Origin: an uncultured Clostridia bacterium
GTDB taxonomy: Bacteria > Bacillota > Clostridia > Oscillospirales > UBA644
Reading direction: 5' to 3'
Assembly: GCA_944386305.1 (NCBI GenBank)
Contig: CALXAN010000061.1
Coordinates: forward strand, 1-40,891
Length of the DNA: 40,891 nucleotides
Shown here: piece by piece, positions 2,041 to 32,800 of the stretch
Layout: every line of letters starts with the position of its first letter
Numbering within the stretch: position 1 is the stretch's first letter
Notes under the pieces: generated by a model
What the model saw: the letters and a program-made list of their open reading frames with translations, nothing else
Told to the model about the DNA's origin: nothing
Databases searched by the model: none
Program-made: the position numbers and the translations under genes

Positions 2041-3474
2041 ATGAAAAAGCTTTTAGCTTTGGTCATAACCCTGACCATGGCGCTGTCCGTGTTTTCCGTC
2101 TGTCTCTTTGCGGAAGAGGAAGAAAAGGAACCTATGCGCACTACGGCGACAGTCATTAACCCGCTGGTGGATATCTACAAGATAGGCACCGCGCCCAAGC
2201 GCGACGGTGTGGTGAGCGCCGGCGAATACGGCGACAAGATACATACCACCTACGAGGCGGGCAAGGAGGGCGAGTTCGACTATAACTACAACTTCCTCAG
2301 GGACGTCGACGCCGACTTCTACGCCTGCTGGGACGACCGGAACCTTTATTTGGCCTGGGTCGTACGCACTGACCATCACAGGGCCGATACTCCCGGTCAG
2401 GGGATGTGGATATGGAACTGCGTGCAGTTCGAGGTCTGCGACCGCGATCCGCGCTTAGAGGACAGGGTAGTGCTGTCTCTGGGCTGTGCTCCCGGTACGG
2501 GCGCGCAGGCCGGCAAGCAGCTTAGGGAGCTGTATAGTTCCGGGGGTCAAATTGATTTTAGTACTTTTTTTAGATCCTCAATGTGGCAGTTTACCGGCAA
2601 GAGGGACGATGCGGCCCAGACCACGACCTACGAGGTCAGCATCCCCTGGACTACGCTCAACACCGTTTCTATCAACGGTTACGGCGGATTTGGTGCTGAC
2701 ACCTCAGGCTTCGCCGCTCTCGGCGGCAAGGCTCAGGAAGGCACCGTCATAGGCCTGTCTTATGTGGTAAACGACACTACCGGTGTGCTGCAGATGGGCG
2801 CCGACCTGCCGGAGGGCGAGAGAGTGCCCGAATATGATACCACTGAGATGGAAACTTACGTCGGCTTTTGGGCTGACCAAAGGCACAGCGTACAGTGGGG
2901 CAGCTCCATACTCGGCGGATATGACGACGATGACGCCGGGATTGTGGCCGACAGCATGATGGCTGTAGTGACCCTCAGAGGCGAAAAGCAGGCCGATAAC
3001 GGCGATGACGACGATAACCAGGGCGGCAACCAGGGCGATAATAGCCAGGACGGAAACCAGGACGGCAATACTACCGACGACAACAATCCTTCTACCGGCA
3101 CTCCGTCCACAGGCGAACCCGCGACGGGCGAACCTGCTACAGGTACTCCTTCTACGGGCGTGCCCGAGACGGGCGCTCCGGCCACCGACGTGCCCGAAAC
3201 GCTCAATCCCGTAACCGGCTAGCCTCGGACTCCCGATGTCGACGAGCCTACGAATACTGACCCCGAAGACGAGGGCGGCAGCCTCCTGTGGCTGTGGATA
3301 GTCATCGGCGTAGTGGCCGCCGCGGCGATAGCGGCGATAGTCATAGTGCTGGTCAAGAAGAAGGGCGGTTCGGACGGCGATACTCCCGACGGCCCGACCG
3401 ACGGCCCGTCTCCCGAAGCCCCTGAGACCGGTGCAGCCTCCGACGAGACCGACACGGACGATAAACAGGAGTGA
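2041..3474 (+). pseudogene. Surface protein paralog 1 (signal peptide, CBM9/DOMON-like domain, PxTG-repeat stalk). An in-frame TAG at 3220-3222 separates a 393-aa ORF from an intact anchor-coding tail, so this is a truncated or secreted variant or a young pseudogene.
   Basis: TAG aligns with GAG (Glu) in both paralogs; the frame stays open through the WLWIVIGVVAAAAIAAIVIVLVKKK TM segment to TGA at 3472-3474; strong AAGGAGG RBS. Confidence 0.8.
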
Positions 3475-3561
3475 TATCGGCAATAAGACGATATTGTCTC
3501 AGGCTCCATAGTCTTTGAGCCCCCTGAGGAAATCAGGCGTAATATCTGTAAGCGACAATCG

Positions 3562-3592
3562 CGCGCAGCCCGTACGGGCTGCGCGTTTTTTT
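3562..3592 (+). terminator. Intrinsic terminator
   Basis: CGCGCAGCCC-GTAC-GGGCTGCGCG followed by TTTTTT. Confidence 0.85.
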
Positions 3593-3600
3593 GTATCAAG

Positions 3601-3743
3601 AAAACCACGCGACAGTCGCGTGGATCTGTGAAGGTTAACCGATGAGAAAAAAATCCTCCTTTTGTGTTAGAATAAAAAGACCTGCCAGCCGAAAAAACAC
3701 AAAAGGAGGATTTGTCTATGAAAAAAAGACATAAATAGTTTAG
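3601..3743 (+). mobile_element. Remnant left end of an IS200/IS605-family element
   Basis: Hairpin CCACGCGAC-A-GTCGCGTGG (3605-3623); perfect 18-bp stem 3651-3668/3696-3713 burying the AGGAGG RBS; ATGAAAAAAAGACATAAATAGTTTAG resembles the MK.DINSL start of Firmicutes TnpA but is frameshifted and truncated. Confidence 0.65.
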
Positions 3744-3934
3744 TATATCAGAACAATTAAAACGGAATAAGGAAAGTGATCAAATCGGCCTGTACGACCC
3801 ACGGGCCCCATTTATGGGCAGTAAGTAACAGATGCATGGCTGGCAGGCCAATGAAAAGGGCACTTGTGCCCGGCCGGCAGAGGGTAGGGCTATGTCCGAA
3901 AATGAACCCCGCTATGCGGGGGATATTTATTTGC

Positions 3935-4230
3935 TTTTGCGGCAGTATGCCGCGGGGGATGATCAGAATATTGCCTTGCGGCGGTATGTAACGGGAAATG
4001 ATCAAAGTACAGCTTTTGCGTTGCGGCGGCATGCAGCGGGGGATGAACAGAATACTGCCTTGCGGCGGTATGCCGCGGGGGACGATCAGAATACAGCTTT
4101 TGCTTTGCGGCGGAATGTAACGGGAAATGACCAAAGTACAGCTTTTGCTTTGCGGCGGTATGTAACGGGGAATGACCGAAATACGGCTTTTGATTTGCGG
4201 CGGCATGCCGCGGGGAATGATACAGTTTTG
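3935..4230. repeat. Degenerate tandem repeat, 7 units of 39 or 45 bp
   Basis: GCGGCGGTATG..CGGG.ATGA units start at 3939, 3978, 4023, 4062, 4107, 4152 and 4197. Confidence 0.9.
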
Positions 4231-4378
4231 CATTGCTGCGAGTCGGGCGCAAAAGTGTTTTTGAAGTCGGCTTTATAAAGAACGGTTTTTGCGCGGGCAG
4301 AGCAAAATGAATTATTATACGGATAATTGAAAAAAAAGTGTCCATTATGTGTAATTTTATACATATATCAAAAATCTA

Positions 4379-4408
4379 TTGACATAAAATACAAGGATGT
4401 GATAAAAT
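4379..4408 (+). promoter_or_regulatory. sigmaA-type promoter of paralog 2
   Basis: TTGACA-18 nt-TAAAAT with TG. Confidence 0.55.
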
Positions 4409-4479
4409 TAATGTGGTTCGGGAGACTCTATTTTTTTACAGCGGTAATTTGCATGCGTTATTTATGAGGAGGAACTCAT

Positions 4480-5958
4480 ATGAAGAAGTTTTTATCTATA
4501 TTATTGTGCGCGCTGCTGACGGTATCCATGTTTGCGGTCTGCGCCTCTGCTGAGGAGCAAAAGACGACTTATGCGACCGTTATCAACCCTCCGGTCGATA
4601 TTTATAAGGTTACCACTTCGCCCAAGCGCGACGGCGTGGTCAGCCCCGGCGAATACGGGGACAAGATACATACCACTTATGAGGCGGGCAAGGAAGGCGA
4701 GTTTGATTACAGGTACAATTTCCCTAAAGACGTGGACGCCGATTTCTATGCCTGCTGGGACGACAGGGCCCTGTATTTGGCCTGGGTCGTGCGTACCGAC
4801 CACCACAGGGCCGACGTTTCCGGTCCTGAAATGTGGATATGGAACTGCGTGCAGTTTGAGATCAGCGACCGCGACCCGCGCGAGGAAAACAGCGTAGTGC
4901 TGTCCCTGGGCTGTGCTCCCGGTACGGGCGCGCAGGCGGGCAAGCAGCTCAAGCAGCTCTTTACCTCTACGGGCAAGTATCCCCTTGATTCTTTCTTTAG
5001 GTCTTCTATGTGGCAGTTTACCGGCAGCAGGGACGACGCCGCAGGCACCACGACCTACGAGGTCAGCATTCCCTGGACTACGCTCAATACCGTTTCTATC
5101 AACGGTTATAACTCGCTGGACACTGACACCACGGGCTTTGCCGCGCTGGGCGGCGAGCCGCAGGAGGGCATGGTTTTCGGCCTGGGCTATGTCGTCAATG
5201 ACACTACGGGCGTGCTGCAGCAGGGCGTTGAACTTCTGCCCGGCGAGCCTGAGCCCGAATATGACCCGAATGATATGGACTCTTATGTCGGTTTTTGGGC
5301 GGACCAAAGGCACAGCGTACAGTGGGGCAGCTCCATACTCGGAGGGTATGACCACGATGACTTTTTAGCCGACAGCATGATGGCGGTAGCCACTCTCCGA
5401 GGCGTAAAGGGCGCTGACGACGGCGGCGATGAAGACGACGGCCAGGGCGGAAACGGCAGCCAGGATGACAATCAGGGCAGCAGCCAGGGCGGCAATCAAA
5501 GCGGGAACCAGGACGGAAATACTACCGGCGGCAGCAATCCCTCTACCGGCACTCCGTCCACCGGTGAACCTTCCACGGGCGAACCCTCTACGGGTGTGCC
5601 CGAGACGGGCGCCCCGGCCACCGACGTGCCCGAAACGCTCAATCCCGTAACCGGCGAGCCTCAGACTCCCGATGTCGACGAGCCTGCGGATACTGACCCC
5701 GAAGACGAGGGCGGCAGCCTTTTGTGGCTGTGGATAGTCATCGGTGTTGTGGCCGCCGCGGCGATAGCTGCGATAGTCATAGTATTGGTTAAGAAGAAGG
5801 GCGGTTCGGACGGCGGTGCTCCCGACGACCCGGACGACGGCCCTGAGACCGACGCGGCCCCCGAAGCCGCTGGGCCCGATGCGGCGGCTGACGGCTCTGC
5901 CGCCGACAGCGCAGAAAATACCGAAGCGTCTTCGGACTCAGGCGCCGACGATAAGTAA
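4480..5958 (+). CDS. Surface protein paralog 2: signal peptide, CBM9/DOMON-like domain, G/N/Q/D linker, PxTG repeats, C-terminal TM helix and acidic tail (492 aa)
   Basis: MKKFLSILL..ASA signal; PKRDGVVSPGEY, DFYACWDDRALYLAWVV, TTTYEVSIPWTTL and GLGYVVND resemble CBM9-like motifs; TM + KKK; GAGGAGG RBS. Confidence 0.85.
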   Translation: MKKFLSILLCALLTVSMFAVCASAEEQKTTYATVINPPVDIYKVTTSPKRDGVVSPGEYGDKIHTTYEAGKEGEFDYRYNFPKDVDADFYACWDDRALYLAWVVRTDHHRADVSGPEMWIWNCVQFEISDRDPREENSVVLSLGCAPGTGAQAGKQLKQLFTSTGKYPLDSFFRSSMWQFTGSRDDAAGTTTYEVSIPWTTLNTVSINGYNSLDTDTTGFAALGGEPQEGMVFGLGYVVNDTTGVLQQGVELLPGEPEPEYDPNDMDSYVGFWADQRHSVQWGSSILGGYDHDDFLADSMMAVATLRGVKGADDGGDEDDGQGGNGSQDDNQGSSQGGNQSGNQDGNTTGGSNPSTGTPSTGEPSTGEPSTGVPETGAPATDVPETLNPVTGEPQTPDVDEPADTDPEDEGGSLLWLWIVIGVVAAAAIAAIVIVLVKKKGGSDGGAPDDPDDGPETDAAPEAAGPDAAADGSAADSAENTEASSDSGADDK

Positions 5959-7046: not shown

Positions 7047-7127
7047 TAGTATGCGCCGAAGAGATAGTTTATTTATACGGCTTTATAAAAGCCGATGAGC
7101 AAAAATATTATGAGGAGGAATTCTCGT

Positions 7128-8546
7128 ATGAAAAAGCTTCTATCAATAATATTGTCCATGCTGATGACGATATCTATGTTTTCGCTGTGCGCGGCGGCCG
7201 AGGAGGAGACGGAAACAGAGCACGCCAAGACTACCGCCACCGTTATCAATCCGGAGATTGATATCTACAAGGTTACCACGGCGCCCAAGCGCGACGGCGT
7301 GGTCAGCCCCGGCGAATACGGCGACAAGATACATACCACGTATGAGGCGGGCAAGGAAGGCGAGTTCGACTATAACTATAATAAGCCCAAGAACGTCGAC
7401 GCCGACTTCTACGCCTGCTGGGACGACAGGGGGCTGTATCTTGCCTGGGTCGTGCGCACGGATCATCACAAGGCGCCGAAGGCGGGCGCTGAGATGTGGC
7501 TGTGGAACTGCATACAGTTCGAGATCTGCGACCGCGACCCGCGCTTAGACGACCGCGTCGTGTCGGGCTGGAGCATAGCCGTAGGCACGGACGCCCAGGC
7601 GGGCAAAAATCTCAAGGCGGTACAGACCCAGCATCAGACGTTCCTAAAGACCAACATGTGGCAGTTTACGGGCAAGCGGGACGACGCGGCCAATACCACC
7701 ACCTACGAAATGATGGTCCCCTGGACCAGCCTAAATACCATTTCGGTCAGCGGCTACGGCGAGATCAGCCCCGACACCACGGGCTTCGCCGCGCTGGGCG
7801 GTAAGCCGAAGGAAGGCATGGTTATAGGGCTGAGCTACTCTGTCAACGATACCACCGGCGAAAAGCAGATAAACCCGCCCGACCTGGCTGAAGGCGAAGT
7901 TCCGCCCGAATATAAGGAGGACGAGGTCCTTGAAGGCTTTTGGGCCGACCAAAGGCACACCGTGCAGTGGGGCAGCTCCATACTCGGCGGATATGACGAC
8001 GAAGACGCCGGAATTGTGGCCGATAGCATGATGGGTGTGGCCACTCTCAGAGGCGTTAAGGAAACTCCCGACGATGGCGGAGATGACAACCCCGGCGGCG
8101 GAACCGATAATCCCGGCGGCGGCAATACCGACGACCCTGACGACGATAACCCCTCTACCGGCACTCCGTCCACGGGTGAACCCTCCACTGGCGAACCTTC
8201 CACTGGCGAACCCTCTACGGGCGTGCCCGAAACCGGCGTTCCGGCTACCGACGTGCCCGAAACTCTTAATCCCGTAACCGACGAGCCTCAGACTCCCGAT
8301 ATCGACGAGCCTACGGATACTGACCCCGAAGACGAAGGCGGCAGCCTTGTATGGCTGTGGATAGTCATCGGCGTCGTGGCCGCTGCGGCGATAGCTGCGA
8401 TAGTCATAGTGCTGGTCAAGAAGAAGGGCGGTTCGGACGGCGGCGATACGCCCGACGGTCCGGACGACGGCGCAGCCCCTGATACCACTGTGACCTCCGA
8501 GACCGATGCGGCCCCTGAGACCGACGCGGACGATAGTCAGGAGTAA
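7128..8546 (+). CDS. Surface protein paralog 3 (same architecture, 472 aa from the MKKLL start)
   Basis: GAGGAGG RBS before ATG 7128; collinear with paralogs 1 and 2; TM anchor intact. Confidence 0.85.
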   Translation: MKKLLSIILSMLMTISMFSLCAAAEEETETEHAKTTATVINPEIDIYKVTTAPKRDGVVSPGEYGDKIHTTYEAGKEGEFDYNYNKPKNVDADFYACWDDRGLYLAWVVRTDHHKAPKAGAEMWLWNCIQFEICDRDPRLDDRVVSGWSIAVGTDAQAGKNLKAVQTQHQTFLKTNMWQFTGKRDDAANTTTYEMMVPWTSLNTISVSGYGEISPDTTGFAALGGKPKEGMVIGLSYSVNDTTGEKQINPPDLAEGEVPPEYKEDEVLEGFWADQRHTVQWGSSILGGYDDEDAGIVADSMMGVATLRGVKETPDDGGDDNPGGGTDNPGGGNTDDPDDDNPSTGTPSTGEPSTGEPSTGEPSTGVPETGVPATDVPETLNPVTDEPQTPDIDEPTDTDPEDEGGSLVWLWIVIGVVAAAAIAAIVIVLVKKKGGSDGGDTPDGPDDGAAPDTTVTSETDAAPETDADDSQE

Positions 8547-8632
8547 ACCAGTAAAATAACGACGGTATTCGCCTTACTGAGCCGGTCTTCGAGCCTTCTG
8601 CTTAGGAATCAGGCGTAATATCCGTAAACGAT

Positions 8633-8677
8633 AGCCGCGCGCGGCCACAACAGGCCGCGCGCGGCTTCTTCTTTTTT
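8633..8677 (+). terminator. Intrinsic terminator
   Basis: AGCCGCGCGCGGCC...GGCCGCGCGCGGCT followed by a T-rich tail. Confidence 0.8.
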
Positions 8678-8874
8678 CGGCCGCAGTATCCGTTTAGTCC
8701 CTATATGCCGCGGCTTGCTTTTAATTATGGTTTTATGCCTGTTATGCGGGGCTGCCGGCGTTCTCATCTCTTTCGTGCCGGTTATTGGGGGCTTGAGCCT
8801 TATCGCACGGCTGCAATGCGGTTTAATCTTAAGGCATTATCGCCGGCTGTGCAGCGGAATGCTGACTTTGGATC

Positions 8875-9397
8875 AAGCTGCCGGGAATCGAACACGGTGG
8901 GGCGGCTGATTTTTGTGCGTACCGCATTTTAATCCGAAAGGATTAACTGCGTGTTGCGCCTTGTCCGCACAAAAATCCGCTCGCTTAAAACGCACCGAAA
9001 AACGGCGCATATTTTTGTTTTTGCGGGTATCTTCGCCTTTACAGATTTGAGGGCGTACGTCAAAGACACCGCAGCAACTTTTTCTGCATATTTTGTTCGA
9101 CCCCCGTCAGCTTAAGCTGACGGGAGTCGAACCCCGCATGGTGCGGCTGATTTTTGTGCGTACCGCATTTTAATCCGAAGAGAGGGCCGGCGCCGTAAAA
9201 CGCCGAATAATGGACATGGGAATAAAGAAAGGCGTAAGCGTACATGTACGAAAAGTCGCGCCGCTCGGAGAGTCAGGGTTTTTTACGCCTTATTTGTACA
9301 AAAATCCGCTCGACTTTATCGAAAAAAATTACCCACGGATTTTCACCTTTACTATGAGACACCTTCGCAGCGACGCGTTTTTTTCGGCATATTTTGC
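8875..9397 (+). mobile_element. Two tandem copies of a dispersed MITE/REP-like element (copies A and B)
   Basis: Ends AAGCTGCCGGGA.TCGAAC / GTTCGAC.CCCG.CAGCTT; 38-bp junction palindrome at 9095-9132; shared internal blocks GCGGCTGATTTTTGTGCGTACCGCATTTTAATCCGAA and ACAAAAATCCGCTCG. Confidence 0.75.
9189..9271 (+). pseudogene. feoA: Internal fragment of a FeoA (ferrous iron transport protein A) gene embedded in repeat copy B
   Basis: Translates as GAVKRRIMDMGIKKGVSVHVRKVAPLG, the core of clostridial FeoA; N- and C-terminal parts are absent and there is no feoB in the window. Confidence 0.8.
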
Positions 9398-9774
9398 AGC
9401 GTGGGGAGGTTCTGTGTCAGATTAAACCGAAAGGGTCGTTTACATATGTGGCCGCGCTCTGCGTCAAGGGGCGGCGGAAATGTTTTTTATACCCGTGCCT
9501 TTACGCTCCACGATGGTATTTCCGCGTCCTTTGGCCTGCGTACGACCGTATCCGGCCTGGTTTGTATTTCGATATATTTACGCTTGCGGGTGGGCGGGAA
9601 TGCCTGTGCTGTAAAAAAATAATATCCGAGCGTTATTTCCCGGCGCTGTGAATGGTTTTTTGCTGTGCTTTTTTATCGTATAATATTTTCTGCAATGCTG
9701 TAAAAATAAAGAAACGAGGCCGTTTCAGATACGGTTCTGCTTATCAGAATTATAGGGGTATCCTCTGTTTGGGC

Positions 9775-10070
9775 AAGCCGCGCGCAGGGCGTTTCGGCTT
9801 TTGGTCTGTATGTTATTAATCCCTGTCATTTCGAAGGATTGCGGCCGCGTGCAGGGCATGCGCTTATATGTCGGCCCGGCCGTGCAAAAAAGTACGGCAG
9901 AGCGTTTCGGCTTTTGGTCTATATGTTATTAATCCCTGTCATTTCGAAGAATTGCGGCCGCGCGCAGGGCATGCGCTTATATGTCGGCCCGGCCGTGCAA
10001 AAAAAGTACGGCTGGGCGTTTCAGGTTTGGGTCATGTGAGTCCCGTTATTCGAAAAAAAGTACGGCGGTT
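9775..10070. repeat. Tandem repeat, ~2.5 units of 113-114 bp
   Basis: GCGTTTCGGCTTTTGGTCT units at 9789, 9902 and (degenerate) 10016. Confidence 0.9.
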
Positions 10071-10092
10071 CATTTTGGTTCATATATAAAGT

Positions 10093-10125
10093 ATCCCGCC
10101 GTTCGGATAACCCGAACGGCGGGAT
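10093..10125 (-). terminator. Hairpin/terminator downstream of the hydrogenase operon
   Basis: Perfect 14-bp stem ATCCCGCCGTTCGG/CCGAACGGCGGGAT. Confidence 0.7.
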
Positions 10126-10185
10126 GATTTGCGGCTTGATCTGTGCGGTCTGAGGTCTTGAAAAAATGTCGTAGAGCGGCTTTGT

Positions 10186-10417
10186 ACACTCAGCCGTCAC
10201 ATATATTTTTTTCCTGCCGCAGGTATGCGTCACTGATAGCTGATACAGACATTCAGCTGTCACATATGTTTCTTTCTTGACATAGATATGCATCACTGAT
10301 AGCTGATGCATACACTCAGCCGTCGCATATATTTCTCTCCTGCCGCAGGTATGCATTAGCTGATGCATACGCTCAGCCGTTACATATATTTCTTTCTTGC
10401 CACGTAGGTGGTATGCA
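10186..10417. repeat. Tandem repeat (63/63/57 bp) whose last unit overlaps the 3' end of hydA
   Basis: TCAGC(C/T)GT..CATAT.TTT..T.CTTG units at 10190, 10253, 10316 and 10373. Confidence 0.85.
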
Positions 10418-12122
10418 GGTCGTGGTGGGCGCGTTTGCAGCCGTAGGAACCCTTGTAGTATTCTTCGTAGAGGGTCTTGACTACGGGGGACAGGTGAGAC
10501 TTGCGTATGGTGCTGGCCTCGTCCATGTCGTACAGGGCTTTGGCGCGCAGCGCTTTTATGTCCGTGGTGTCGCGCACGTACTGCGGCTGTATGGGCTGGC
10601 CGCCGCCGTTTACGCAGCCGCCCGGGCAGCCCATGATCTCGACAAACGTCCAGTCGGCCTCGCCGCTGTGTATTTTGTCCATTACTTCTTTGGCCGCTTT
10701 TGCTCCGCTGGCCACGGCCACCTTTATCGTCTTGCCGCCCAGGTTTACCTGCGCCTCTTTTATGGGCGCGGTGCCGCGCAGCGCTGAGAAGTCTATCGGC
10801 TCGCCCTCGCCGCCGCTCAGCCAGTCGTTGGCCGTCCTGAGCGCGGCCTCCATGACGCCGCCTGTCGCGCCGAATATGGCCGCCGCTCCCGTGTCCTGCC
10901 CCAGCGGGTCGTCAAAGTCCTCGTCGGGCAGGTTTGTAAACATGAGGCCCGCCCTGCGTATCATGCGGCTCAGCTCCCTGGTGGTGATGACTATGTCCGT
11001 GTCTCTGTAGCCGGAGGCGTCCATGTTGTCGCGCGTGATTTCAAACTTCTTGGCCGTGCAGGGCATGACCGCCACGTTGATTATCGTGCCGGGGTCTATG
11101 CCGTATTTTTCGGCATAATAGGTTTTTATCACCGCGCCCGTCATCTGCATGGGCGACTTGCAGGTGGAGATGTGGTTGAGCATATCGGGGTAGTAGAACT
11201 CCGCAAACCTCACCCAGCCCGGCGAGCAGGAGGTTATCATGGGCAGGACGCTGTTGGATTTTATCCTTTCCAGCAGCTCGTGCGCCTCTTCTACTATCGT
11301 CAGGTCCGCGCCGAAATCCGTGTCGAAGACCTTGTCGAAGCCGAGCCTGCGCAGCGCCGCCACCATTTTGCCCTCCACGTTTGTGCCTATGGGCATGCCG
11401 AAGCATTCCCCGAGCGCAGCCCTGACAGAGGGCGCGGTCTGAACTATGACGGTTTTGGTCGGGTCGGAGAGCGCTTTCCACACCTTGTCGGTGTCGTCTT
11501 TTTCCACGAGCGCGCCCGTGGGACAGACTACCGTGCACTGGCCGCAGGCTATGCACGGCGTGTCCAACAGCGCCTTGCGGAAATGCGGCCCGATGCTGGT
11601 CTCCATGCCTCTGTCCGTAGGTCCTATGACGGATACGTGCTGCTCTTTGCACGCGGCCACGCACCTGCGGCAGAGTATGCACTTGGTGTTGTCACGCACC
11701 AGGTACGGGGTGGATTCGTCTATCTTGTACTTGGGGTTAAAGCCGCTGAACTTGTTTTCGTCCACGCCGTAGTCGTGGCACAGCTTGTGCAGCTCGCAGT
11801 TGGTCGACCTCAGGCACGACAGGCAGTCCTTGCGGTGGGTGGACAGTATCAGCTCCAGTGTGGTCTTGCGCGCGTTGCGCACCTTTTCGGTGTTTGTCTG
11901 TACCTCCATGCCCTCGCTGACGGGGTATACGCAGGCGGTCACCAGGCCTCTCGTGCCCGTGGCCTCCACCACGCATATCCTGCATGCGCCTATCTCGTTG
12001 GAGTCTTTCATGTAGCAGAGCGTAGGTATCTCTATGCCCGCGAGGCGCGCCGCTTCGAGTATAGTGGAGCCCTCCGGCACGCTGACCGGGATGCCGTTTA
12101 TCTTCAGATTAACGTTTTTCAT
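10380..12122 (-). CDS. hydA: [FeFe]-hydrogenase catalytic subunit (group A3, NuoG-like N-terminus)
   Basis: H-cluster motifs TSCSPGW, MPCTAKKFE and EIMGCPGGCVNGGGQP; 2Fe-2S, HxxxCxxCxxxxxC and 2x4Fe-4S motifs; GAGGTG RBS before ATG 12122. Confidence 0.96.
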   Translation of the reverse strand: MKNVNLKINGIPVSVPEGSTILEAARLAGIEIPTLCYMKDSNEIGACRICVVEATGTRGLVTACVYPVSEGMEVQTNTEKVRNARKTTLELILSTHRKDCLSCLRSTNCELHKLCHDYGVDENKFSGFNPKYKIDESTPYLVRDNTKCILCRRCVAACKEQHVSVIGPTDRGMETSIGPHFRKALLDTPCIACGQCTVVCPTGALVEKDDTDKVWKALSDPTKTVIVQTAPSVRAALGECFGMPIGTNVEGKMVAALRRLGFDKVFDTDFGADLTIVEEAHELLERIKSNSVLPMITSCSPGWVRFAEFYYPDMLNHISTCKSPMQMTGAVIKTYYAEKYGIDPGTIINVAVMPCTAKKFEITRDNMDASGYRDTDIVITTRELSRMIRRAGLMFTNLPDEDFDDPLGQDTGAAAIFGATGGVMEAALRTANDWLSGGEGEPIDFSALRGTAPIKEAQVNLGGKTIKVAVASGAKAAKEVMDKIHSGEADWTFVEIMGCPGGCVNGGGQPIQPQYVRDTTDIKALRAKALYDMDEASTIRKSHLSPVVKTLYEEYYKGSYGCKRAHHDLHTTYVARKKYM

Positions 12123-12141
12123 GTCTTGACGCACCTCTTTT

Positions 12142-15361: not shown

Positions 15362-15618
15362 GAGCCTGAGCTGGCGGGAGTCGGGCAAAATATGCCGAAA
15401 AAAAATACGCTTCTTTTACATACCGCAGGTCTGCAAGGGAGAATAACCTGTCTGCAAAGGCAAAAATCCGTCGTTCTTTTCGCTGCAGTTTTGCGCGGGC
15501 GGATTTTTGTGCGGACAGGGCATAACGCAGTTAATTTTTTTCGAATTAAAATTCTAACGCAGTACGCGCGAAAATCAGCCGACCCGTGTCGTACTCGGCT
15601 CTTATGAAGCTTAAGCTC
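15362..15618 (-). mobile_element. Copy C of the dispersed MITE/REP-like element, inverted orientation
   Basis: Reverse complement reads AGCTTAAGCT..CGGCTGATTTTCGCGCGTAC..TTTTAATTCGAAA..TGTCCGCACAAAAATCCGCCCGC..TTTTTTCGGCATATTTTGCCCGACTCCCGCCAGCT, the same block order as copies A and D. Confidence 0.75.
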
Positions 15619-24384: not shown

Positions 24385-24668
24385 GTTAAAGACGAAAATT
24401 TATCCGCGTCATTGCGGCGGCACATTTCTACCTCGGTGTATGCTCGTAGATCTTAAGACAGAAACTTATCCGCGCCGCTGCGGCGGCACATTTCGGTCTC
24501 GGCGTATGCCCGTAGATCTTAAGACAGAAACTTATCCGCGCCGCTGCGGCGGTGTACTTGACATATGTCCCCAGGCCCGCAAAGGCAAAAAAATATCCGC
24601 GTCACGGCGGCGCAGCCTCGGCGTATGCACGTGGATTTTAAGACATAAATTTATCCCTGCCGCTGCGT
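24385..24668. repeat. Degenerate tandem repeat, ~4 units of ~66 bp
   Basis: TTAAGACAGAAACTTATCCGCGCCGCTGCGGCGG at 24453 and 24519; degenerate copies near 24386 and 24638. Confidence 0.85.
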
Positions 24669-25001
24669 ATCTGTTTGCAGGCCCGCAAGGGCGAAAATCC
24701 GACGGAGCCGTTTTTCGGCGCGGTTTTAAGCGTGCTGTTTTGCGCGCCGTAGTATTTTGTGCTGCTGCGGCTGATCTTTTCGGGTCGGTATGTGCGCGCC
24801 GAGTCAGCCGCCACGTATTTTGCCCCAATCCCGGCAAGTTTGACACAGGATAGGCTCGGCGGGCGGCCTGGTCATGGTTTAAAAAAGCCTTTGCCGAAAG
24901 GTCAGTTTTTCTGTTAATAATAAGCTTTATCAAAAGATTCGGCGCTCGGCTTTGTACGGGCCGCCGTATTTTAGTTATATTAGTTATAGGAGATATGCAA
25001 T

Positions 25002-26363: not shown

Positions 26364-27271
26364 CAGCTTATTTTACAGCGGCCGCTTTTTATTCTGTTTT
26401 GCGGCGGCTGCGGTTGTGCCTGCGGCCGCCCCTGTTTCTGCGGTTTTTTCTATCTTGCGCAGCTTTTACAGCTCCTGCGTTCTTTCTTTTCTTGCAAATT
26501 CCCTGTATGGATTTTTTATTTCCCTGCGGGGGAGTCTTTTCTTAGCACATTTCTCGCTTGCATTCTTACATTACGTATTCCCCTGCGGGGCGTTCGATTT
26601 TTTCTTGCAGATTCTCTGCAGAGCTTTTGCATTCATATTCTTCAGCGGGTTCTTTTTTGTTTGCTCCCACGTTCAGCGGCTGGAACGCGTACCCGAAAAC
26701 ACAAAAACGGCGAACACCTGTGCCGCGGAGCGCATTCGGCAGGGTTCGATGAGAGCTTTTTTTGAATTTCCGTTCGGTTCCGCGCATGTGCATGTTCGGG
26801 CGGCGGATTTTTTTGCCGTACGGGAAAAGATGGGCCGTCCGTTAAAAAAACGCAGAGCGCGGCGTGATTTTCTGCTGCGGGGAAGGGGGGGGAGCTGAAA
26901 GTTCGCGGTATCGGCCGCCTGTACACAGACGTAAAAAAGTTAGGATTGTCCCGCGTGCAGGCGCCTGCACGCGGGACGCGGCGCATTGTGAAAAGAGTTC
27001 AGACGTGGATTCGCGGCGGAGGCGGGAGCCGTCCGAACCGCCTCGGCGGACAAAACGACGGGTTATGCCTCGGCTTTTCGGGCGGACGGTATGCCGCCGG
27101 ACTTCCTGTGCGGAAAGGCCGCAGGGGTAGCGGCTTTATACGCGCGCGCCCGTGCGAGATGCAGCGGCTGCGGAAAACGGCGAACGGAGCGCAGCCCGCT
27201 CTTTGAGCGAGCCCGGTTTTCAGCCTCGCATTCGGTTCGAACGCGGCGTGGGCACAGGGTTCGGCGCTTTT

Positions 27272-31953: not shown

Positions 31954-32577
31954 TAAGCTGCCGAACGACGAACCCGATATGGCTTTAAGCGGCTGATTAT
32001 CTGCGTTAAAATCCGAAAGGATCCCTTGTCCGCACAAAATCCGTCTGCTTAAAACCCACCGAAAAGAGACGAATTTTTACCTTTGCAGTCTTGCGGGGTT
32101 ATTCTCCTTTGTAGATCTGCGGGGGGTGTACGTTAAAGATACCGAAGCGCATTTTTTTCGGCATATTTTGTTCGACTCCCGGCAGCTTGGCTGCCGAAAA
32201 CCGAACCCGATATGGTTTTAAGCGGATGATTTTCGTGTGTACAGCGTTTTAATCAGAAAAGGATGTTTTTGTCCCTTGTCCGCACAAAAATCCGCCCGCT
32301 TAAAACTGCACGCACCGAAAAAACAGCGAAGAGAGATAATTTGCAGACCTGGCGTCAAAGACGCTTATTTTTTTCGGCATATCGTATACATCTCCCGGCA
32401 GCTTAAGCTGCCGGGAGATGTATACAGTATTCTGATTTGGCGCACGCACTGCGTTATATTAATCCGAAAGAATCGACCGCCCAATAATTTGCTCCCGAAA
32501 AGCGGTGCCTTTCGCCTTCTGCGGACGTACGTCAAAGACGCAGCGGCATATTTTTGGCATATTTACTGCCTTAAGCT
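31954..32577 (+). mobile_element. Three tandem copies (D-F) of the dispersed MITE/REP-like element
   Basis: Units bounded by TAAGCTG/CAGCTT at ~31954, 32188, 32404 and 32577; shared blocks AATCCGAAAG, CTTGTCCGCACAAAAATCCG, CGTCAAAGAC, TTTTCGGCATAT; perfect 42-bp palindrome at 32384-32425. Confidence 0.78.
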
Positions 32578-32800
32578 AACCCCCGAAAGAGCTGAAACTT
32601 TCGTATGTATGAACAATGCCATAGTCGGCATGAGGTCTGTCTGCTTTAAAAAAAATATTTTAGGTCTTCGGCTGCGCTCAGGCGATGCTTGTATTTCTGC
32701 GCCTGTTAACGGGCGGCGTTTTATCGAGACGGGGGTTAATTGGTGAGAATCCCGCAGGCGCGGAACGATAAATAATGAGTAAAAAGCAGGCGGACTGTTT

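Follow-up and report, generated by a model that had tools for sequence, protein, structure and literature searches.

How does a piece of an iron-uptake gene come to lie inside a non-coding repeat, and does it do anything there? The question is raised by a locus in an uncultured gut anaerobe at which a segment matching feoA interrupts one copy of an interspersed repeat. We analyzed this locus within the window, a stretch of 40,891 nucleotides that is the entire contig C61 of a genome of 1.62 Mb (129 contigs, 85% complete); the sequencing runs that contain the stretch are mostly chicken-gut metagenomes, and no RNA run is listed among them. An initial, sequence-only reading had taken the segment for foreign coding sequence held at a variable position of the repeat, perhaps by an undescribed capture system. 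We conclude instead, with a probability of roughly 0.7, that the feoA patch is one-off neutral filler DNA, left by break or gap repair in a fragile, MITE-like and now dead copy.

The patch lies in a repeat array between convergent genes

The patch lies in a repeat-rich spacer of 1.4 kb on which two genes converge: a surface-protein gene on the upstream side (7095 to 8546, plus strand) and hydA, a [FeFe]-hydrogenase gene recognized by its Pfam match (10380 to 12134, minus strand). Terminator-like hairpins lie 3' of both the surface-protein gene (8633 to 8666, plus strand) and hydA (10093 to 10125, minus strand), so that the repeat array is enclosed by convergent terminators. The patch had been connected with the hydrogenase genes by its closeness to them; this link is not supported, as terminators and other repeats separate hydA from the patch in a convergent intergenic region.

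Among the neighboring sequences, positions 9773 to 10087 hold two to four tandem units of ~113 nt, each with a GC-rich palindrome (9784 to 9891 and 9897 to 10004 are 96% identical); this family is unrelated to the patched element. Three to four tandem 63-nt units at 10174 to 10400 lie downstream of, and overlap, the 3' end of hydA (stop at 10380). The surface-protein gene belongs to a paralogous trio in the window (2140 to 3585, 4462 to 5841, and 7095 to 8546) with DNA identities of 73 to 80%. The product of 7095 to 8546 (483 amino acids), the paralogue that we translated, combines a low-complexity region, in which P, T, G, D, and E abound, with a C-terminal hydrophobic stretch; it gave no Pfam match.

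One repeat copy is interrupted at its hairpin tip

The host repeat is a ~250-nt non-coding unit closed by terminal inverted repeats (TIRs), and we saw no conserved open reading frame (ORF) in it. The unit starts with AAGCTGCCGGGAGTCGAAC and ends with the reverse complement of AAGCTGCCGGGAGTCGAAC, the TIRs being 19 nt long in this genome, and its long stem (GCGGCTGATTTT.GCGCG ... CGCACAAAAATCCGC) bears the tip hairpin TTAATCC-GAAA-GGATTAA. Iterated nhmmer searches of this genome returned 66 hits, which group into 36 clusters and of which 38 reach E ≤ 1e-15; the copies are often tandem and sometimes lie at contig ends. RNAalifold found no consensus structure for 16 copies of this genome because the same-genome alignment is too ragged with indels. 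Away from the patch locus, nhmmer placed further copies in the window at 15363 to 15601 (minus strand; E = 5.5e-49), at 24543 to 24834 (minus strand), and in a tandem run of three at 31965 to 32582 (plus strand; 31965 to 32206, 32193 to 32422, and 32432 to 32582). The second of these carries an 88-nt insert at model position 148, which matches neighboring tandem repeats rather than a gene.

The genome also holds another interspersed family of ~100 to 250 nt, unrelated to the host repeat, whose copies are 75 to 92% identical (C30:6202-6317, C46:3265-3581, C71:2607-3042, C84:21546-21741, C109:12419-13117, C118:13726-13814 and 26653-26883, and C54:11832-12006).

At the patch locus two copies of the host repeat abut, both on the plus strand. 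Copy A is complete (8876 to 9132; nhmmer 8880 to 9132, model positions 1 to 253, E = 3.7e-78), with a 5' TIR of AAGCTGCCGGGAATCGAAC, the tip TTAATCC-GAAA-GGATTAA at 8929 to 8946, a 3' TIR that ends at 9113, and a fold z score of -5.7; its nhmmer hit extends into the 5' TIR of copy B. The abutting element ends share a TA (9113 to 9114) and thereby form a palindrome of 19+19 nt at 9095 to 9132, in which the 3' TIR of copy A and the 5' TIR of copy B are 95% complementary. Copy B falls into two parts. Its 5' part (9116 to 9179; nhmmer 9120 to 9184, model 2 to 64, E = 1.9e-11) consists of the TIR, the 5' strand of the long stem, the 5' half of the tip (TTTTAATCC), and the GAA of the tetraloop, and it shares with copy A a 41-nt repeat that is 98% identical. 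The 3' part, which begins with TTTTACGCCTTATTTGTACAAAAATCCGC (9283 to 9430; nhmmer 9281 to 9396, model 73 to 216, E = 6.3e-10, 37.5 bits), is degenerate and has lost most of the 3' TIR. The two halves are contiguous in the model (2 to 64 and 73 to 216) and thus belong to one interrupted element.

The interruption is plain from the spacing of two blocks, and the coordinates bear out the distances first reported for them. In copy A, TTTTAATCCGAA ends at 8938 and CGCACAAAAATCCGC starts at 8966, a gap of 27 nt. In copy B the gap is ~117 nt, from the end of TTTTAATCCGAA at 9179 to the start, at 9296, of the matching block, TGTACAAAAATCCGC, which has two mismatches to CGCACAAAAATCCGC of copy A. From the alignment of copies (columns 97 to 200) and a gapped alignment to feoA, we delimited a foreign patch of ~103 nt at 9180 to 9282 (plus strand). 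It begins within the GAAA tetraloop and takes the place of the 3' strand of the tip, so that ~13 to 15 nt of the element (AGGATTAACTGCG) have been replaced.

The patch was copied from a resident feoA gene or a near-identical one

The clean feoA-derived core of the patch spans 9189 to 9271, lies in sense orientation on the plus strand, and corresponds to codons 22 to 48 of the resident FeoA; positions 9180 to 9188 and 9272 to 9282 are ambiguous junction or filler bases. When the core was compared with the host genome by BLASTN, it matched C81:6188-6106 at 79 of 83 positions (95.2%; E about 1e-32), and a BLAST query of 9180 to 9275 identified this as the sole strong match to the patch in the 1.62-Mb genome. 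The translation of 9189 to 9269, GAVKRRIMDMGIKKGVSVHVRKVAPLG, is identical to residues 22 to 48 of the resident FeoA at 25 of 27 positions and matches the Pfam FeoA profile (E = 2.5e-5; 24.7 bits against a cut-off of 23) over positions 22 to 48 of 74. The original identification of the conserved core of FeoA was therefore correct, and so was the proposal that a repeat copy had acquired coding sequence, the donor being intact on C81. That contig carries a 74-codon feoA (Pfam E = 7.4e-22, profile positions 1 to 73 of 74) followed by feoB, with a second feoA-like ORF upstream. The core and the donor differ at 9221, 9226, 9233, and 9246; the mismatches (A/G, A/C, C/A, and G/A) are not adenine-specific. 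Two of these changes are synonymous, at third positions, and the other two replace an amino acid (K/T and V/I). Among the feoA genes of 40 related genomes, the best was at most 79% identical; the donor was therefore either the feoA of this cell or its counterpart in a very close strain.

The patch itself is a fragment, without the complete domain of ~74 residues, encoded by an ORF from start to stop, that defines a FeoA gene. The feoA matches of relatives adjoin feoB, and tblastn detected no FeoB in the window at better than E = 0.46, in agreement with the earlier statement that feoB is absent from it; other feo remnants were likewise missing there. The only ORF that starts in the patch, of 71 codons at 9210 to 9425 (plus strand, from the ORF list), we judged spurious; inspection of the upstream sequence revealed no Shine-Dalgarno motif, and a second strain (described below) lacks 1 nt at 9322, which breaks the frame. 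Homology to feoA may continue a little to the right of the core (GTCAGGG, found 16 nt further along feoA), an extension with weak support (77 of 2,000 shuffles); a leftward extension past 9189 was unsupported (1,431 of 2,000 shuffles). Neither junction shows clean microhomology, a point against an origin by repair.

A second feoA-feoB paralogue operon lies on C100, within 2399 to 4796, and a repeat copy (4585 to 4796, minus strand) lies ~150 nt upstream of its feoA. We considered whether this copy was linked to the patch; there is no sequence relation between them, and we treated the proximity as a coincidence.

The patch is inherited and is present in a second strain

In a run from a different study (X5), a 486-nt contig covers 8979 to 9441 without a break and spans both patch junctions. 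Over this range it is 97% identical to the window, with 14 substitutions and one 1-nt deletion (9322). An independent, diverged contig across both junctions rules out a chimeric join, which disposes of the concern, voiced at the outset, that the junctions were an assembly artifact. As a second strain, 3% diverged, has it too, the patch is inherited within the species. The 103-nt patch accounts for three of the substitutions, a rate equal to that of the whole stretch (14 in 463 nt), and the X5 base at 9226 is the donor's C. Runs X1 and X2 had no contig over 9190 to 9261, and a 151-nt contig from X7 extends just 13 nt into the patch and was not counted as bridging.

A repeat-rich intergenic stretch of 1.4 kb in a fragmented metagenome-assembled genome could also suggest a relic, in which a local feoA was overrun by repeats, or else an assembly chimera. 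The bridging X5 contig speaks against the latter. As for a relic, the flanking halves of copy B are contiguous in the element model, and an identity of 95% to the resident gene points to recent copying. Moreover, of 80 hydA loci of relatives (HydA 69 to 77% identical, up to 4 kb of flank on each side), none had FeoA or the element; an intact feoA at this position in relatives, which would have spoken for decay in place, was found in 0 of the 80. Given this result and the fact that the feoA genes of relatives adjoin feoB, a decayed feo locus is rejected, and we hold a relic or a chimera to be extremely unlikely.

The host element belongs to a structured family with MITE-like ends

Of 401 genomes sampled from the order, 13 contain the tip sequence. 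Family f13 contributes 5 (of 26 genomes) and family f19 contributes 7 (of 26), whereas in the window's own family it occurs, besides this genome, in 0 of 26. The element family occurs in three families of the order, and single genomes of a family other than the window's have as many as 11 pattern matches. Complete copies from other genomes have, as read by eye, a TA on each flank, which may be a target-site duplication, and their TIRs, of ~25 nt, differ between subfamilies and are still complementary. Element length is 250 to 280 nt across genomes, and 17 copies from other genomes fit a single 284-column alignment without long inserts. The copies that we collected from other genomes are at loci L033 to L062 (genomes G036, G132, G222, G250, G262, G287, G355, G369, G378, G392, and others).

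On the 17 aligned copies, RNAalifold predicted 65 pairs, 26 of them with compensatory changes. With the predicted structure, 95.1% of cells were paired, against 31 to 54% when the partners were slid, and the covariation score was 0.307, against 0.135 in shuffles, none of which reached 0.307 in 500 trials. In helix 5, the tip, 15 of 17 pairs are invariant across genomes. G-U cells outnumber A-C cells by 99 to 15, which favors the plus strand as the folded strand, a preference that is suggestive only because the structure was itself predicted on the plus strand.

TIRs together with TA on both flanks make the element MITE-like as judged from its sequence, and like a MITE it has many interspersed copies. 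It exceeds the size of <200 bp in the Delihas definition, and an autonomous IS630-type partner with matching ends did not emerge: the IS630-type transposase domain (PF13358, DDE_3) was absent from this genome and from four element-rich genomes. Searches of Rfam 15 (E ≤ 5 over positions 8000 to 10800, and E ≤ 1 over four loci of other genomes) placed the element in no family, and blastn of a copy from another genome against plasmid and phage collections gave no match. The family may be an undescribed structured mobile RNA or a MITE.

The position of copies relative to genes is uneven. In 12 of 27 copies from other genomes (L033, L035 to L038, L040, L043, L047, L049, L054, L056, and L057), the 5' end of the element lies at most 45 nt from the start codon and ribosome-binding site of a divergent gene (read as ...CAT...CTCCTTA directly before the element); the 3' end is so placed in only 2 of 22. 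The element could prefer to insert at a TA directly 5' of AGGAG, or it could act in regulation. At L039:1322-1410 (plus strand, genome G287), just upstream of an element copy, there is a sub-threshold match to the Rfam Gut-1 RNA (38.3 bits, where the gathering score is 50; E = 9e-5).

The patch site is conserved in the family and fragile in this genome

The patch destroys helix 5, the most conserved helix of the family. With 15 of its 17 pairs invariant, the patch site is therefore the family's most conserved part and no variable slot. The loop that had been called variable is the apical loop of this conserved hairpin; it has the form GNNA, always 4 nt long, in each of the 17 copies aligned from other genomes and in 23 pattern matches in f19.

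In this genome, however, the tip is often damaged on one side: among 37 aligned rows, its 5' half is kept in 32 and its 3' half in 14, and the tip segment measures 32 to 64 nt against ~55 nt when intact, with many rows 10 to 20 nt shorter. The 3' side of the tip is fragile in this genome, and its shortening explains why the region had appeared variable. None of the other copies among the 37 rows has an insert at the tip, and the inserts of at least 12 nt in other copies of this genome match only themselves or neighboring repeats. In 49 f19 genomes, we found no copy with a gap of 63 to 123 nt, against 23 with normal spacing. A scan of JGI metagenomes, from which the window's genome is possibly excluded, for copies with a gap of 90 to 120 nt returned one match, which was unrelated. 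Several repeat copies lie at contig ends of this 85%-complete genome, so further patched copies may be unassembled.

A second gene scrap occurs in two other copies

Two other copies of the repeat, on C43 (~9552 to 9959, minus strand) and C25 (1 to 273, plus strand), share an insert of ~130 to 145 nt that replaces the middle of the element and includes ~100 nt of a choice-of-anchor-I gene in sense orientation. This scrap is 74% identical over 117 nt to a gene on C11 (E = 1e-15; 25 of 54 amino acids, E = 8e-12); the donor-like gene (C11:4658-7519, minus strand) encodes 954 residues, with the choice-of-anchor-I Pfam domain at 298 to 791. The C43 and C25 copies have unrelated flanks and are ~70% identical to each other. 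A blastx comparison of all 36 clusters with the ORFs of the genome (sets of at least 120 and then at least 50 amino acids) recovered only the feoA and choice-of-anchor-I cases.

No further copy has a piece of a gene at the tip; the choice-of-anchor-I scrap sits elsewhere in the C43 and C25 copies. In both cases a fragment of a host gene lies between the ends of an element while a donor or donor-like gene lies elsewhere, and with this second scrap in two other copies the comparison with Pack-MITEs, drawn in the sequence-only reading, is apt as a description. The feoA-bearing element is a single copy, and the choice-of-anchor-I scrap is at two loci. The two scraps are both ~100 nt long and both sense relative to the favored element strand. 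Two like-sized sense scraps, one of them at two loci, could point to a process more regular than random scarring, with the proviso that for orientation alone the second scrap had a 1 in 2 chance of matching the first.

Discussion

We favor the view that the feoA patch is a repair scar, and we infer the break and the repair route behind it from the anatomy of the locus. The DNA of copy B would have broken at the hairpin tip, or repair synthesis would have aborted there; the 3' strand of the tip would have lost ~13 to 15 nt; and the gap would have been closed with ~100 nt from the feoA of the cell, either copied or ligated in. The loss of internal sequence, the foreign patch of ~100 nt, and the untidy junctions, seen in both scraps, fit filler DNA. 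The filling could have proceeded through Ku/ligase end-joining of a stray fragment or through template switching during gap repair; the latter is an equally good account, and the two are indistinguishable here. An end-joining system is encoded on C27, where a Ku gene (E = 1.3e-52) overlaps an ATP-dependent DNA ligase gene in an operon at C27:30222-31918 (L064 1474-3170; proteins of 253 and 312 amino acids). In an experiment of Dupuy et al. (PMC6379672), Ku/LigD captured DNA fragments into bacterial chromosomal breaks, with deletions at the ends of the inserts. As no partner transposase of the IS630 type was found in this genome or in four element-rich ones, abortive transposon gap repair has no enzyme to anchor it. 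If the patch is such a scar, it is probably functionless: it breaks the family's best-conserved helix, in a decaying copy between convergent terminators, and it drifts like its flanks. The Ku-ligase operon lies ~350 nt from a tandem repeat array (C27:29328-29892).

Close to a repair scar is the idea of transduplication, in which the family regularly gains ~100-nt gene pieces when it is mobilized, through gap repair that aborts once the element has excised, and can pass them on to other loci; the feoA cargo would again be functionless. The two views overlap, and their sole difference is whether the break was tied to transposition. Two independent scraps in ~36 clusters, both between element ends and in place of internal sequence, would suit such a habit, as would the presence of the choice-of-anchor-I scrap at two unrelated loci and the frequent internal deletions among copies, and the TIRs and TA flanks suggest that the element moves by cut and paste. 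The events number just two, however, and the feoA-bearing copy is single and without its 3' TIR; this genome and four element-rich ones lack a DDE_3/IS630 transposase, no long-gap tip copy turned up in 49 genomes, and the 17 aligned copies are free of long inserts. We therefore regard a Pack-MITE-like habit of the family as unlikely while keeping it as a live minority view. The same sense orientation of both scraps could be read as the trace of an RNA-level event, in which the element spread or was repaired through RNA or cDNA and a reverse transcriptase switched from element RNA to feoA mRNA and back; template switching of this kind does yield short patches in place of internal sequence. Two of two in one orientation is weak evidence, though, TIRs and TA flanks are marks of DNA transposition, and no RVT_1 reverse transcriptase is present in this 85%-complete genome, so that we consider an RNA-level chimera very improbable.

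Might the patch nevertheless do something? If copy B were transcribed, its feoA segment could act as an antisense RNA from the minus strand or, in sense, as a decoy for a regulator of feoA mRNA. Identity at 79 of 83 positions permits extensive pairing, the conserved, covarying, and strand-biased structure of the family suggests transcription, and the patch has been kept in two strains. The antisense or guide RNA that was first proposed fits poorly, however, with a patch that is sense on the strand favored by 99 G-U against 15 A-C cells, that diverges as its flanks do, and that destroys an otherwise invariant helix 5. The patch is moreover a single instance, in a degenerate copy between convergent terminators, and promoter-like sites in 8500 to 10450 numbered 3, which does not exceed what shuffles yield (mean 2.3), with none on the plus strand. 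A functional RNA is improbable on this evidence, and a role of the patch in iron regulation has no support. A structured repeat with an insert at its hairpin tip also resembles a scaffold with cargo, as in spacer-like acquisition by a dedicated capture or guide system, or the template of a diversity-generating retroelement. Recurrent, different inserts at one site would be the mark of a spacer scaffold. We found no other copy with an insert at the tip, an invariant loop length in other genomes, and no Rfam 15 match, and for this genome the suggestion of a capture system or a spacer in a scaffold is contradicted; we accord it almost no credence. The retroelement template was rejected on the mismatches, which are not adenine-specific (A/G, A/C, C/A, G/A), and on the lack of RVT_1 in the genome. 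The boldest combination of these ideas would make the repeat a mobile RNA element, structured, transcribed, and so far undescribed, of gut Oscillospirales-type Clostridia. Like a Pack-MITE in a prokaryote, it would take up sense pieces of ~100 nt from the mRNAs or genes of its host and carry them to new loci, with the feoA copy kept as an RNA that titrates an iron-uptake regulator; we think this a long shot.

If the repair-scar explanation is true, the patch preserves a natural instance of filler DNA from break repair in an uncultured gut anaerobe, and its value is mainly as a caution that gene scraps in repeats need not be systems. A more interesting side result is that one repeat family holds two gene scraps, one of which may have spread to a second locus. 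The host element family (250 to 280 nt, TIRs, TA flanks, covariation, presence in three families, absence from Rfam 15) is a more interesting object than the patch and merits a study of its own.

Filler DNA that arises by abortive gap repair or template switching is known from eukaryotic cut-and-paste transposons. The patched copy resembles such cases in the internal deletion of the element and the short templated patch from an ectopic site; it differs from those eukaryotic elements in that excision and repair are here deduced from the anatomy. Pack-MULEs and Pack-MITEs are plant DNA transposons that capture gene fragments. Here too a piece of a host gene lies between the TIRs of a non-autonomous element while the donor is intact elsewhere, and the choice-of-anchor-I scrap is at two loci; in contrast, our case is bacterial, the scraps are ~100 nt, there were two events in ~36 clusters, internal sequence was replaced, and the feoA-bearing copy is single and decayed, with no IS630-type transposase partner found. 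The literature on gene-fragment capture that we located concerns eukaryotic elements, apart from work on Tn3-derived elements, and for prokaryotic MITEs we found no discussion of it, including in a 2024 review (PMC10969869). CRISPR arrays and guide-RNA scaffolds share with this locus a structured repeat that adjoins a foreign segment, whereas here a spacer array and associated genes are lacking, acquisition does not use one uniform site, and the insert breaks the scaffold.

Close bacterial parallels in form are the RUP and Correia elements, bacterial MITEs that Delihas (PMC2229807) gives as non-coding and <200 bp. Like them, the host element is non-coding, multi-copy, and intergenic, with TIRs, TA (as read by eye) at both ends, and a long RNA-type stem-loop; unlike them, it measures 250 to 280 nt, shows strong compensatory covariation in its internal stems, came with no IS630-type partner that we could find, and is absent from Rfam 15. 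For the patch itself, a close parallel is the Ku/LigD capture of fragments by Dupuy et al. (PMC6379672). That work used an I-SceI cut and a transformed cassette in Sinorhizobium, whereas the piece here is natural, self-derived, and 100 nt long, at a break deduced from what it left behind; common to both are a non-homologous fragment at the break and the loss of end bases, and the genome that carries the patch has a Ku-ligase operon of its own.
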